From Halobacteriovoraceae bacterium (GTDB lineage: Bacteria; Bdellovibrionota; Bacteriovoracia; Bacteriovoracales; Bacteriovoracaceae), in contig CAVRCF010000003.1 in assembly GCA_963719505.1 (NCBI GenBank), forward strand, positions 32,001-96,000: a stretch of 64,000 nt of DNA, in the 5' to 3' direction. The notes below the pieces were generated by a model that saw only the letters and a list, made by a program, of their open reading frames with translations, was not told where the DNA came from and searched no databases. Below are positions 23,128 to 28,606 of this stretch, piece after piece. Position 1 is the stretch's first letter. Each line of letters begins with the position of its first letter. The position numbers and the translations under genes are program-made.

Positions 23128-25843
23128 TTAATGTTTCAAGTCCCCAAGATCTAAACCTATACGTTGGAGATTGAGAGGATTAGCGAATTCCTTCTGCCCT
23201 GTCGCTCTTGCGGCACCTAGTGATGCCTCATTGCCCTTCAGAGTGAATGGGGATACCAGCACCGTTGGAGCTTTCTAGGAATGTTGGAGAACTCCCTGAT
23301 TGCAAGGATTTGAGGGTTACAAACTTAGAGGAATAAAAGTTTCGTTTCATATTTTGAGAGTCGGATCTCACAGCATTATTCCATATTCCACTTGCACTTG
23401 CGTCATTTTGCGGGCCAGGTCGATAAGCTGAAAAAATAATATCTTTTGTGTCATCTTTTATTGAGAGCGTCGTGTTGAAAAAATCATTGTCTATATTTGT
23501 CGAAAAATACTTCTTCATCATTCCTACTAGGTAGGAATCTTCTGGGTCAACTCCTGCGGGAACACAGCCGGTTGTATTGGCGAGAACCCCAAGGTCTAGT
23601 GCTCGATTGCCCAGGTAAAAGTAGGCGAACTTTCCTGCAATGCTGGCACAAGTTGGTTTCGCATCATCGCTTTGAGAAGCTGCTTGAGAGCTTAAGTAAC
23701 TCACATCAATATCTGAGATCAGTTTTGCAGCAGCTTCTCCAAGATTTCCTCCAGTTGCAGCAGAGCTATTTTCCAAGTAAATAGAAGAAGCCGCCGAATT
23801 CATCGACTTTATATATTTTTTCACGGCAAGTATCTGTTTACCAAGATAGTCATTTAGGACTCCTTCAACTTCATTGGCATTGCTAAGAAGAGCATTTGGA
23901 CCGTAAAGAGGAGCGTAGAGACTCATATTGTAGTAGCGAGTTCCATTGGGAAGAGACTGTGGATTTTCAGCAGCTCCAACGAGTCCGAATGAATCTAGTC
24001 CTAGGCTGCTATTCATCTCTTCTGGACTTGGAATGAGATAGTTATTGGCATCCCATTTTGTAGGTGCTCTAACGCTAAGAAAAGCATCGCCAATTTGCCC
24101 AACGGAGGGACTCGTTGATGCGAGATTGGCTTTAAACTTCCTAAACATCGCTGCATTATAAAGCCCTGACTTTAATTCCTGGGCAGGATTTGAAGGGTCT
24201 AGAACGGTTATATTTTCGTCGTCAAAGTATCCACCTTCATCCGGAGATCCGTTAGGGTAGTCATAGATTAAATTGGGAACAGCAAAGACTATTTTAGATT
24301 CATCATCAAGCCAACCACCAACGGCTGCGTCTTGAGCTGATTGCCAAAAGGCAGATCCTGTTGGATCAACTGGAAGAGGAGCTCCAGGTGCGTATTGTCC
24401 TGGAGCAAGTGTTTGGCCTTTTCTATCGACAAAGCTTGTCGATTTCATTCCAGTTAAAAAGGCGCTTGAGATTTTTTTTACAGCACCACCGGAGGTGACT
24501 CTTGGCCTAACCGCTGAGCTGTCAGACATATCGAAAAGCATCGGACCCACTCTTCCTCCAAATGGTTTTGCTGCGGCATAGGCTGAAATCATGATGCCAC
24601 CGTCATCATCAAAAGGATTGAACATACCGATGAACTTAGCCTTGCCCTCAACGGCATAATAAGTCAGAACATTTGGGTTTTTGACAAAGCCAAGTGGGTA
24701 GCCTGGAATAGGAAGACCAGTCTTGGTAGAGGCACAGGCTGCTTCAGTATCAATGGTTGAACCTTGAAAAGTGATATCGTCTTTTAAAGAAGTAAAGATC
24801 GTATAAAAAGTTGCAAGGTTTAGGGTCATTAGTTTTAAGTCGACATAGTATTTGTCTTGGAAGGTAGAGCTAGTCTGGGGAATGAGAAGATTAGATGTAG
24901 ACTGTAGACTTTCATCTTTATATGGCTGAGGTGGAAGTTCTCTTAGGGTAAAACTTCTTCTTAGTTCTTCAGATTCATCCCCTTCAGAGCCTCCTAAGTT
25001 TCTCACTCCAGAGAAAAAAGCCTTATTAATTCTCTCTTTCCCGGCCCTTCCTCCATCAATGACATTATTAATGGACTGTGAGCAAAAATCTGAATTGGAA
25101 TCATTTGGTTGAAGACACACTCCATCTAACTCTGGTGGCTCATTCATATGAGCTTCAAGACTTCTCATTCTAAGACCCAGTTCAAAGGCTCTTGGAAAAG
25201 CTCCTGAGGCTTCCGATCCAATCTCTGGAGCAAGTGTCTGCAGAGCATTCTTCTCGCTAGTTTGAACATTGTAAGCCCAAAGAGTAATGGTTAAAAAGTT
25301 GATTTGTGAACGAAGGGCACAGTCTTTATTTTTTTCACTTGTAAGAGTGTCGAGAATTGAGTTGGTTGTTTGATCTAAACTTCCAACGTTTATAGGCTTA
25401 AATCTAGGAAGTCCTGGAATGACATAGTTTTTACAAAGGGCCGTAACTCCCTGACCAGCGAAGTCGATACATCCACTAGGAACATTGTAGCGATCAGAAA
25501 CATTTGCGGCAGAGTTGTTGTAAGTTTGCATATTAAATTTGGTCGTATCCCCAGAAGGGTTTCCAGCGACATCATTAATATTGAGGTTTCCCAAAACATA
25601 ATATTTGAGCATCCACTCTTTATAGACGTTTCTCATTTCAAAATTTAAATGGGAGATATTTGTTAATTGTCTGGCCTGTACACTTGCTCCAGCAAAGGCT
25701 GCAGCATCGACCGCATTTTGAAGGTTAATTTTCACCTTCACAAAAATACCGATATTAATGACAAAAGCCAAAAAGGACATCAGCACAAACAACGTTGTGG
25801 CAAAAAACAAACTGATTTGTCCCTTTTGTTTCTTCGTATCCAT
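23128..25843 (-). CDS. Tad/TadG-like pilin-domain protein (ORF stops at 23228; probable indel, true end likely 23128)
   Basis: KGQISLFF prepilin-like N-terminus with NLQNAVDAAAFAGA; a +1 frame continues 34 codons to TAA at 23128. Confidence 0.8.
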
Positions 25844-25950
25844 TGATCCTAGCTTTACTTAAACGTCTTTGGCCCCGGTAAAAATTTCCCCTGGGCGCGA
25901 TGTGTCACTACTTTGTAGATTTATCATTAGTATAGCTTAGTACTTTAGTA

Positions 25951-25995
25951 TAAGTCACTGATTAATGGAAGGAGTGTTTTGGTATGGAACTTGAA
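25951..25995 (+). promoter_or_regulatory. IHF-like site plus sigma54-like promoter facing a non-coding region
   Basis: TAAGTCACTGATT (1 mismatch to YAANNNNTTGATW) then TGGTAT-GGAAC-TTGAA. Confidence 0.5.
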
Positions 25996-26004
25996 GTATA
26001 GAGG

Positions 26005-26141
26005 GTGTCTCGAAGGGTGCCGATCTTCGAGTGTAGTACGTAAACTGAACTCGGCGTACATTTCTCGTTCACGTCTGTTAAAATTTACTCTTCGTAAATT
26101 CACCCCTGGAGTATGGAGATACTCCAGAGGTCCTTTTTTTT
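26005..26141 (+). ncRNA. Candidate structured small RNA (~135 nt)
   Basis: Four hairpins (26009-26031, 26036-26059, 26082-26100, 26106-26127) and a plus-strand U-tail, between two minus-strand genes. Confidence 0.5.
26103..26141 (+). terminator. Plus-strand intrinsic terminator
   Basis: CTGGAGTAT-GGAG-ATACTCCAG 9-bp stem, then TCC and 8 T. Confidence 0.7.
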
Positions 26142-26142
26142 C

Positions 26143-28032
26143 TTACTTAAACTCTTTAACGAACTGTTCAAATTCTCTTTGGGATAAATCCTGCGAGCTT
26201 ATAGAGAAGCACTTCTTCGTCGCTTCAAATTTATCAAAATCTTGTGAGGTCTTAAAAGACGCTGGCTCAATTTCTTTATCGAAGACAAATTTATTATGCT
26301 GAAACCTTTGATTGTCGTGATTATATAAGCCTCTCACTTTATGGAAAGTGACCTCTCCTTTGGAGACCGTTCCCCTTGGTAGTGGCTTCTCGTAGCTATC
26401 GAGTCTTGCGCAAACCATAAGACCCGTCCTTCTTACCTTAAGTTTACTCAAACCTTTATCAAGCCATTTATAACTTTCGTCCACATGCAAGATATCGTTG
26501 AAGTTTTCCTCAGCGACAAATTTTTGCTTTGAGAGTTTGATCAATTTTTCGATGTACTGATCTTTGTCTTTAAAGGGAACCTTAAAGTTTAGGGGAGACA
26601 TAAGTTGGTTATGAAGCTTTTCATCGTACTTAATACTTGTCTTAATTTTAAACTTTAAAGCTTGCTGTAAGTGAATAAAGTCAGAGGATACGTCAATCTT
26701 TAAATAGGAATTATAAACCTCTGGATAGGAGTAAGAGGTATCCAGGTAAATATCGTAGTCAAGAAAGTAGAGAGCTTCTCCCTCGTGAATGACCTTTTCT
26801 TTGTAAGGTTTGAAAACAAACTTTAACGAACTTTGAGTAGCTTGAACCTCTCTAATATTCGGGGCAATATCACTGATATCAGCCTCACTTGCAATTAAGT
26901 CGTCATAGACTTTTTGAGTCTCTCTATGTTTATGTTCAATAGCGCTTATGTTTTCTTTGTTTGAGTCTTCAACTATTGAATCAAGAAAACTTTGAGGAGC
27001 TAGCTTTGCAGTATCAAACTCCACAGAGACAGCATCGACTGAAAGTAGTGAAGCCGTAAACTCGAATGCACCTTTATTCTTTCGAAGACGTCTTGATCTG
27101 TCGGGCTGATTGATTCCACACTCTATCGTTTCCCTGTCTTTAAAAGCTAATCGACTACTTGGATGATTTGAAAAATCATAGATCCACTGGGATCCATCAA
27201 TTCTGGTAACTCGACAAAGAAGGGCGTAGGGCTGGTGCTCTTTTGAAAGGGAACTGTTTCTTGCTCGCTCTTCACTTGTTCCTACAGGGCCTAGGACTCC
27301 AACTCGATGAAAGTCTATCGTTCCAGTTGGAGGAAAGATCATGATGCCTGAATCCTTTGCAAGTTTTATTTTATATTGATATCCGTGAACATTTGAACTG
27401 ATTTTTACTTTCTCTTTCTTCCCAATACTTTGATGCATCTCTTTGTGGTCAGCGTATAGACTTGGAGAGCTTAAATATTTTAGATGGTAAGAAAAAATTC
27501 TTTTGAAATCTTCTGAAATATTATCTGAGCTGAGAAGACTTTCAGAAACGGCAAACTCCTCAATTTGATCAACACTAAAAAGGAGGTTTTTTTGAAGCTT
27601 AAAAGTGACCTCTACTTTTGAAGAGTCACTAAAGTTATTATTTTTACACATGACTTTTTCAAAACTTAAAATGCCATGATCTATCACTTGGTATTCATGA
27701 TTTTCTAGTAATTTTCCTTTATTCACACCGGGGCTTTCATCGACACATTCAAAATCATTTCCAGATAAAATAAAAGAATAGTTTTGGAGACCGAAGATTT
27801 TATCTTTTGAGTGGGTGGAGAAACCATAATCCAGCGGAAGCCTGATCTCATGGATTCCATGTTCTGGCTTTGAAAGATGATAAGTCGTTTTGATATAGTA
27901 GTGGCCATCTTTTTCTACATAGGTGAAGTCGGGATCATCAATGCTAGAGATGGTTCTTCCTCTAAAAGGAGAGTTAAAGGATGCACACGAAGTAGCGGCA
28001 AAAATTACAAGTAAAAACAATGGTTTAAACAT
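26143..28032 (-). CDS. Hypothetical lipoprotein
   Basis: Lipobox-like ATS-C, GGAGG RBS, 629 aa. Confidence 0.75.
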   Translation of the reverse strand: MFKPLFLLVIFAATSCASFNSPFRGRTISSIDDPDFTYVEKDGHYYIKTTYHLSKPEHGIHEIRLPLDYGFSTHSKDKIFGLQNYSFILSGNDFECVDESPGVNKGKLLENHEYQVIDHGILSFEKVMCKNNNFSDSSKVEVTFKLQKNLLFSVDQIEEFAVSESLLSSDNISEDFKRIFSYHLKYLSSPSLYADHKEMHQSIGKKEKVKISSNVHGYQYKIKLAKDSGIMIFPPTGTIDFHRVGVLGPVGTSEERARNSSLSKEHQPYALLCRVTRIDGSQWIYDFSNHPSSRLAFKDRETIECGINQPDRSRRLRKNKGAFEFTASLLSVDAVSVEFDTAKLAPQSFLDSIVEDSNKENISAIEHKHRETQKVYDDLIASEADISDIAPNIREVQATQSSLKFVFKPYKEKVIHEGEALYFLDYDIYLDTSYSYPEVYNSYLKIDVSSDFIHLQQALKFKIKTSIKYDEKLHNQLMSPLNFKVPFKDKDQYIEKLIKLSKQKFVAEENFNDILHVDESYKWLDKGLSKLKVRRTGLMVCARLDSYEKPLPRGTVSKGEVTFHKVRGLYNHDNQRFQHNKFVFDKEIEPASFKTSQDFDKFEATKKCFSISSQDLSQREFEQFVKEFK

Positions 28033-28153: not shown

Positions 28154-28606
28154 ATGCAATTTAAAACAGATATATCGAGCTTAAAAAATAAGAAATTTTT
28201 TAAAGTTAAAAATTCTAAAAACGAATTCTTATGTGCTCTATGTAAAGCACCCAGACAAATGCGCTACTCTAAAAATCTCTCCAAAATGTTTTACTTCCGC
28301 CTTTTTCTCTTCAGTGCTTTCTTAGCTTGGGCCGCTTACGCATTTCTTGGACCTAAAGCGATGTCTGCAATCATAGTCATTTGGCCTATTGCTGAGTTCG
28401 TGAACAAAATCCTCTATAGAAAAGAGATCCCTTGTCCATATTGTGGCTTTGATGCCACTTGGTATCGCCGAGATGTAAAAGTTGCAAAGAAAAAAGTAGA
28501 GTCCTTCTGGTCTGAAAGGCTTCCTGAGCGCCAAGAAAAAGCGCAAATTCAAAAACCCATGGTTGACCCTAAAAAACCACTTCGAAATGAAGAACTTGAG
28601 ATTTAA
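28154..28606 (+). CDS. Hypothetical membrane protein with two CxxC motifs
   Basis: CALC...two TMs...CPYC; AGGAGG RBS before ATG 28154. Confidence 0.75.
   Translation: MQFKTDISSLKNKKFFKVKNSKNEFLCALCKAPRQMRYSKNLSKMFYFRLFLFSAFLAWAAYAFLGPKAMSAIIVIWPIAEFVNKILYRKEIPCPYCGFDATWYRRDVKVAKKKVESFWSERLPERQEKAQIQKPMVDPKKPLRNEELEI

Follow-up and report, generated by a model that had tools for sequence, protein, structure and literature searches.

What is encoded in a 299-base intergenic gap (25844 to 26142) that separates two minus-strand genes, when the terminator-like U-tail inside it lies on the plus strand? The question arises in the window, which here means the whole 64,000-nt stretch of DNA that was analysed, from a member of the Bacteriovoracaceae, a family of marine and freshwater predators of other bacteria. 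An earlier note on the window had proposed a new structured small RNA, driven by sigma-54 and IHF; the strands of both neighbours and of the U-tail are as it described them, and all of the sequence elements that it listed are found where it had placed them. The analysis supports the interval from 26006 to 26141 (+) as a conserved, single-copy, structured predicted RNA gene, whose parts and surroundings are collected in Table 1.

Table 1. Coordinates of the predicted RNA, its control region and its neighbours, numbered from the first nucleotide of the window
Feature	Position	Strand	Remarks
Tad-like gene	23228-25843	minus	871 aa; left of the gap
Conserved upstream block, GGGCGCGATGTGTCAC...TTTATCA	25893-25927		candidate enhancer and/or Tad-like promoter
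IHF-like site, TAAGTCACTGATT	25951-25963	minus	about -55 to -43; one mismatch to WATCAANNNNTTR
Sigma-54-type promoter	25979-25995	+	-24 TTGGTAT, 5-base spacer GGAAC, -12 TTGAA
Predicted RNA	26006-26141	+	about 136 nt; start from promoter geometry (+/-2), end at the U-run
Stem-loop 1, CUCGAAG/CUUCGAG, loop GGUGCCGAU	26009-26031	+	strands 26009-15 and 26025-31
Pseudoknot 5′ strand, GCCGA	26019-26023	+	in loop 1; pairs with 26051-26055
ACGU	26038-26041	+	in the loop connecting stem 1 and the pseudoknot 3′ strand; 51/53 homologs
Pseudoknot 3′ strand, UCGGC	26051-26055	+	from covariation; about 25 nt downstream of loop 1
Linker	26056-26098	+	pyrimidine-rich tract, then variable region
C-rich anti-Shine-Dalgarno-like element, UUCACCCC	26099-26106	+	foot of the 3′ hairpin
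3′ hairpin	26102-26131	+	12 pairs, one C.A mismatch, tetraloop GGAG (GNRG in relatives)
U-tract, eight T	26134-26141	+	two or three bases past the stem
Lipoprotein gene	26143-28032	minus	629 aa, predicted lipoprotein; right of the gap
Small-protein gene	28154-28606	+	about 150 aa, zinc-ribbon-like membrane protein

The Tad-like protein has a single recognised part, an N-terminal TadE/G-like segment (PF13400, E 5e-7), and apart from this domain no family name was obtained for the three neighbouring proteins. In particular, a profile search returned no family match for the lipoprotein, and the small protein, which carries FFKVKN..FLCALCxAPRxMRYSKN followed by hydrophobic stretches and a second Cys pair, matched no Pfam or NCBIfam family. 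The small-protein gene always lies directly upstream of ssb in the Bacteriovoracaceae, and the usual gene order, kept in most genomes, is Tad-like (minus), RNA (+), small protein (+) and ssb (+), with the small protein starting about 50-90 nt past the 3′ hairpin in most homologs. Between the RNA and the small-protein gene, the lipoprotein gene forms a lineage-specific insertion, which is common only to the window genome and one metagenomic relative (L027), at 71% identity.

The RNA stretch occurs once in the 3.69-Mb genome to which the window belongs, where a covariance model matches positions 26003-26141 with 134 bits. In a BLAST search of 40 relatives, one congener had a copy with 79% identity and another had a partial copy. 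A search pattern of two invariant blocks recovered nine true copies from Bacteriovoracaceae/Halobacteriovoraceae MAGs, where 3 of the 12 loci were G+C-rich chance matches, and five true copies, two of them new, from metagenomes, where chance matches made up 7 of the 12 loci. The covariance model R1, built from 12 sequences, finds one copy each in 45 of 151 Bacteriovoracaceae genomes (19 of 69 genera) and detects the RNA in all 26 genomes of genus g51 that were searched. A further model, R2, from an alignment omitting eight loci with reverse-strand partial matches to the palindromic hairpin, raises these numbers to 87 of 151 genomes and 38 of 69 genera, which is an undercount because R2 misses real divergent copies: all five R1-negative genomes that were inspected via their small-protein gene contain a divergent copy at or near the syntenic site, each with a sigma-54-type promoter, and R2 under fast filters misses two of the five. 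Outside the Bacteriovoracaceae, 3 of 127 genomes gave matches, all of them marginal (E from 0.001 to 0.004). The presence of one copy per genome rules out a repeat or mobile element.

The element matches no catalogued RNA family. The earlier note had recognised no known family in it, and the Rfam 15 cmscan that it proposed, run over 25600-26400 with E values up to 10, likewise returned no match within the RNA. The same scan gave a weak match to a Tetrahymena C/D-box snoRNA at 25702-25763 (+), with 22.7 bits, where the gathering score is 60, and an E of 0.14; it lies inside the Tad-like coding region and is almost certainly a chance match. A search of the literature, with most subscription journals outside its reach, found nothing on sigma-54-dependent or other small RNAs in Bacteriovoracaceae or Bdellovibrio. 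Moreover, ORFs beginning within 230 nt of the promoter reach 24 aa at most, and a conserved short ORF is ruled out: no reading frame is kept across the homologs.

A sigma-54 promoter is characterized by GG at -24 and GC at -12 with a fixed spacing (TGGCAC-N5-TTGC). At a fixed distance from the RNA, TGG-N9-TTG is present in all 32 close homologs (27 found by a regular expression and 5 variants by eye) and in all 33 of a wider set (31 and 2, respectively), with the general form TTGG(T/C)A(Y)-N5-TTG; the -24 TGG and the spacing are found in the window genome and in all 53 distinct homologs. The -12 element varies among the 32 close homologs, reading TTGC in 15, TTGAA in 14 and TTGTA in 3; the window genome is among those with TTGAA rather than TTGC and thus departs from the canonical GC. 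Across the window genome, there are 46 intergenic sigma-54-like motifs, whose -12 element is mostly TTGCT. The genome encodes rpoN (one Sigma54_DBD match of 206.9 bits) and yields 14 Sigma54_activat matches, ten of them with at least 83 bits, indicating about ten enhancer-binding proteins. The sigma-54 promoter proposed by the earlier note gains support from its position in all 53 homologs and from the encoded sigma factor and activators. No gene for an enhancer-binding protein is found among the 27 proteins around the RNA (within about 15 kb).

Further upstream, the reverse complement of the IHF-like site (AATCAGTGACTTA) has one mismatch to WATCAANNNNTTR, and sites with at most one mismatch are present in 17 of 53 homologs as compared to 9% of shuffled regions. 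They mostly start at -54 or -64, positions separated by one helical turn, in a single orientation, and an IHF-alpha equivalog above cut-off is encoded in the window genome; the IHF-like site in the earlier description thus gains comparative support. In relatives (loci L038-L066), TGTCAC-N7-9-GTG(C/T)CATTTTAnCA is also kept, about 75-110 bases before the start of the RNA. On the minus strand, this block reads as an extended -10-like element, TGnTAAAAT, and then, where the Tad-like mRNA begins, as the short palindrome CAC...GTG. The block could be a candidate enhancer of the small RNA, an extended -10 promoter with a 5′ hairpin for the Tad-like gene, or both. From these motifs, we infer that transcription of the RNA depends on sigma-54 and an enhancer. 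The compact control region is common to the RNA and the divergent Tad-like gene, which suggests that the two are regulated together.

Comparison across relatives is decisive for the structure of the RNA, a single sequence folding just modestly better than its shuffles on the plus strand. When 32 distinct homologs are aligned to R1, 96.6% of the cells are paired and 20 of 25 pairs have double changes; none of 500 shuffles yields pairing statistics as high, and no slid register comes close. In particular, stem 1, with a length of 7-9 bp, has compensatory double changes in 8 of 9 pairs, while the upper stem of the 3′ hairpin has them in 8 of 9 pairs with 100% of cells paired. The helix between loop 1 and its downstream partner is paired in 99.4% of cells and has double changes in three of its five pairs, with GC/AU/GU exchanges at one pair and, in one genome, changes from CG to GC and from CG to UA.

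In the larger set, loop 1 can pair with the stretch after ACGU over at least 5 bp in 47 of 51 homologs and over at least 6 bp in 39 of 51; shuffled loops attain 6 bp in just 12% of cases. At least 14 different duplex variants occur across these 51 homologs, for example, UGCCGA:UCGGCA, UACCGA:UCGGUA and UGGUGA:UCACCA, and further GUCGAG:UUCGAC, AACCGG:CCGGUU and GCCAGG:UCUGGC. The geometry is that of an H-type pseudoknot, with loops of about 3, 0-1 and about 20 nt and two covarying helices of 7-9 and 5-6 bp. Covariation shows that the predicted RNA forms a 5′ H-type pseudoknot, which the earlier note had offered as one possible outcome of its GCCGA/TCGGC complementarity and had proposed to examine by collecting homologs. 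The ACGU in the connecting loop is replaced in two of 53 homologs, by AUCGU and CCCGU.

Beyond the pseudoknot, the linker opens with CCUCU, CCCUU or CCCUC in most relatives and with ACAUUUCUC in the window genome, following the pattern nnnCCYYY; its variable region contains a clade-specific hairpin at 26082-26100. The length of the linker varies by 0 to about 50 nt, through indels that do not come in threes. The four hairpins drawn by the earlier note divide into two groups: stem 1 and the terminator stem are conserved, whereas GTACG/CGTAC, which would overlap the pseudoknot 3′ strand, is not conserved among the homologs and AATTTAC/GTAAATT occurs only in the clade of the window genome. A pairing of GGGUG in loop 1 with CACCC at the foot of the hairpin was rejected, as its variants do not compensate each other (GGGGG/CGCCC; GGGUA/CACCU). 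Minimum free energy folds of single sequences disagree with the comparative structure and were set aside.

The 3′ hairpin has the form of an intrinsic terminator in the window genome, a stem of 9-12 bp followed by eight U. A simple terminator scan reports the hairpin at 26106-26127 and its T-run as a plus-strand terminator; the scan returned three terminator-like sites compared to 1.1 expected in shuffles. Behind the hairpin, 17 of 32 homologs have a T-run of at least four, which the other 15 lack. In the inspected homologs of genus g51 (L057 and L059-L063), GYnCGUCCAAAA or a similar sequence follows the hairpin without a U-run, and transcription there may continue into the small-protein gene, which lies about 70 nt further on. 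On the opposite strand of the window genome, the stop codon of the lipoprotein gene is a single base away from the A-run of the hairpin, and the hairpin probably also ends this convergent gene. At the foot of the hairpin, UUCACCCC is invariant inside TTCACCCCTGG in an alignment of 12 sequences, which had themselves been collected with that motif; most homologs found by the model keep it, with variants such as UUCGCCCC and UUCACCUCC, and its conservation drops in the wider set. The GGA of the hairpin loop, in which the earlier note had seen a CsrA-like site, proved not to be conserved, the relatives having GCAG, GAAG, GUAG or GCGG instead. The window RNA contains two GGA motifs, one in the loop (GGAG) and one paired. 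A CsrA sponge is ruled out by the unconserved loop GGA and the lack of motif repeats, although CsrA is encoded in the window genome (C1:257718-257873).

Two alternatives would deny the element its own gene. According to one, no plus-strand RNA exists and the hairpins belong to a minus-strand transcript, either at the end of the lipoprotein gene (terminator or 3′ UTR) or in a long 5′ UTR preceding the Tad-like gene. In the window genome, the element does fold better on the minus strand (z of -4.83 against shuffles, compared to -2.80 on the plus strand, where values ranged from -2.3 to -2.8), and, given the adjacent stop codon, the hairpin may serve the lipoprotein gene here as well. However, wobble pairs across the homologs number 68 G.U and 3 A.C cells when read on the plus strand, so that only three would be G.U on the minus strand, and this asymmetry places the RNA on the plus strand, as the earlier note had claimed. 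Both the promoter and, where present, the U-run of the homologs point the same way, which leaves the minus-strand folding energy without weight. Moreover, most relatives lack the lineage-specific lipoprotein gene and keep the element, so the hairpins are not its 3′ UTR, the explanation that the earlier note had named as fatal to its own proposal. We regard a purely minus-strand origin as very improbable. The other alternative is a cis-acting leader or attenuator, in which the sigma-54 promoter would drive the small-protein gene and ssb while the pseudoknot senses a ligand or protein and sets termination against read-through. The small-protein gene does follow on the same strand within about 50-90 nt in most homologs, with ssb behind it, and 15 of 32 homologs have no U-run. 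Further, nnnCCUCU after the pseudoknot can pair with AGAGGnnn in the 3′ foot of the hairpin (26056-26063 with 26126-26133) in switch-like competition with its bottom pairs. This alternative helix has 8 bp, in four covarying variants, in 7 of 32 homologs (L044, L045, L047, L054, L056, L058 and L064), but just 4-6 bp in the other 25, including the window genome, where it is weak; it could hide a seed or modulate termination. Strong U-runs in the window genome and many others also speak against a leader, as do two features of the downstream genes. In 5 of 32 homologs, again including the window genome, an opposite-strand gene lies directly behind the 3′ hairpin and cuts the RNA off from the small-protein gene, and yet the RNA is intact; the inserted genes belong to at least three unrelated groups. 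Between the window genome and L027, which share their insertion, the RNA differs at 16 of 140 columns, with the invariant motifs, both pseudoknot strands and the 3′ hairpin unchanged; the single change in stem 1 retains a G.U pair. In addition, an extended -10 promoter belonging to the small-protein gene itself occupies a fixed position in 17 of the 21 cases where the motif can be placed, including the window genome (TGCTATACT at about 28127, next to the ribosome-binding site). Together, the insertions with an intact RNA and the separate promoter lead us to read the RNA as an independent gene with the hairpin as its 3′ border, genetically independent of the gene downstream. A leader function is thus, in our judgement, decidedly unlikely. 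Judged by its comparative record, the element is a real, new and family-wide small RNA gene of a known general kind, with an unusually well-supported predicted 5′ pseudoknot.

How such an RNA would act is a separate matter, and the explanation to which we incline, with moderate confidence, is a stand-alone trans-acting small RNA of about 136 nt that is controlled by sigma-54 and IHF and represses mRNAs by base pairing. Sigma-54 RNA polymerase would start at about 26006, activated by an enhancer-binding protein on the block at about 25893-25927 and helped by IHF bending the DNA at 25951-25963, and transcription would end at the hairpin and U-run (26102-26141). The product would fold into a 5′ H-type pseudoknot with a 20-nt connecting loop that carries ACGU, followed by a single-stranded C/U-rich tract, the variable region and the 3′ hairpin. 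Acting in trans, the C/U tract after the pseudoknot and UUCACCCC would pair with purine-rich ribosome-binding regions and repress those mRNAs, and the pseudoknot would protect the 5′ end or provide a contact for a protein or ligand. The C/U-rich tract and the UCACC(C/U)CC element resemble the anti-Shine-Dalgarno end of 16S rRNA and are natural seed candidates against ribosome-binding sites.

Stand-alone RNAs can also work by binding, as 6S RNA and CsrB do when they titrate a protein, and the RNA might instead use its pseudoknot, as an aptamer or docking site, to capture a small molecule or to titrate a protein. For a small RNA that simply base-pairs, an invariant pseudoknot whose loop is conserved is unusual. 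Its geometry, with loops of about 3, 0-1 and about 20 nt, is the classical one seen in several riboswitch aptamers, and conservation extends beyond what pairing needs, covering the loop GGGUGCCGAUC, the ACGU in 51 of 53 homologs and the GNRG tetraloop. Base pairing, for its part, left no trace in a target search: RNAduplex calculations of the linker and L3 loop against 6,627 candidate start regions of the window genome gave no signal, since five shuffled linkers reached equal or lower energies (the 0.5th percentile was -27.8 for the real linker and -28.6 to -31.9 for the shuffles). No Hfq match is found in the window genome, which is 83.5% complete, so that a base-pairing chaperone is not evident, and a U-rich stretch before the 3′ hairpin is present in one clade only. 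Against a binding function stand the lack of any match to an aptamer or protein-binding family in Rfam at E values up to 10, the lack of the repeated binding motifs of sponges (a single GGA is exposed, and it is not conserved), and a gene context from which no ligand or partner can be named. We consider a binding RNA unlikely, if less so than a leader. Rather doubtful, too, is the more specific idea that the pseudoknot and ACGU sense a ligand or protein, making the RNA a riboswitch-like regulator produced by sigma-54, whose C-rich anti-Shine-Dalgarno-like tract is exposed or hidden by the signal.

The base-pairing reading has precedents among sigma-54-dependent small RNAs. Pxr of Myxococcus xanthus and its relatives is described as a sigma-54-promoted RNA of about 110 nt with several stem-loops, which occupies a single syntenic intergenic position throughout a lineage once assigned to the Deltaproteobacteria and whose targets are still unknown (PMC5568312; PMC11928866). 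The window RNA shares with Pxr a sigma-54-type promoter and the syntenic intergenic site, and differs from it in sequence and structure, with no match in the Rfam scan. Moreover, Pxr is described as having three stem-loops and adjoins a likely activator gene, nla19, whereas the window RNA has a pseudoknot and no activator gene nearby. In Enterobacteriaceae, GlmY and GlmZ are described as having a sigma-54 promoter with activator sites more than 100 bp upstream and IHF sites of the form WATCARXXXXTTR, and the activity of the glmY promoter as requiring IHF (PMC3045617). The layout of the window RNA gene is similar, combining a sigma-54-type promoter, a candidate activator block upstream and an IHF-like site; in contrast, the Rfam scan finds no homology, GlmY and GlmZ have no 5′ pseudoknot, and the GlrR site of that system, TGTCN10GACA, is not exactly matched by the TGTCAC-N7-9-GTGYCA block.

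The Qrr small RNAs of Vibrio are sigma-54- and enhancer-dependent, terminated and Hfq-dependent, and have a conserved single-stranded seed and several copies per genome. The window RNA is like them in its sigma-54-type promoter and terminator, and its genome carries further sigma-54 units without ORFs; it is unlike them in having a pseudoknot, a single copy and no Hfq match, and it is not homologous to them by the Rfam scan. Among predatory bacteria, Bdellovibrio has in merRNA, a stand-alone riboswitch-like RNA, an earlier example of an aptamer-like RNA that lacks a regulated gene. In its compact, highly conserved pseudoknot with an intrinsic terminator behind it, the window RNA recalls merRNA and pseudoknot riboswitch aptamers, but there is no Rfam riboswitch match, no conserved alternative pairing has emerged, and a separate gene is favoured by the type of promoter and by the orphan copies.

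The window genome also contains three further sigma-54-type promoters (TGGCAY-N5-TTGCT) at C1:774633(-), C1:990237(-) and C4:148275(-), each followed by 100-150 nt without an ORF of at least 64 aa and then by a T-run, with a CCCCACCU motif in two of the three. The covariance model has no match to these units, which would accordingly represent other RNA families. Taken with the RNA of the gap, these units suggest that a group of small RNAs is transcribed through sigma-54 in these predators.

To our knowledge, post-transcriptional control has hardly been described in the Bacteriovoracaceae. The RNA, single-copy, syntenic and family-wide, has one of the better covariation-supported pseudoknots of those obtainable without experiments and is a candidate for a new Rfam family. 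It offers a defined deletion target in cultured Halobacteriovorax or Bacteriovorax, and a clean reporter for one of about ten enhancer-binding proteins. If the sensor reading were true, enhancer-dependent and metabolite signals would be joined in the control of the predatory life cycle.
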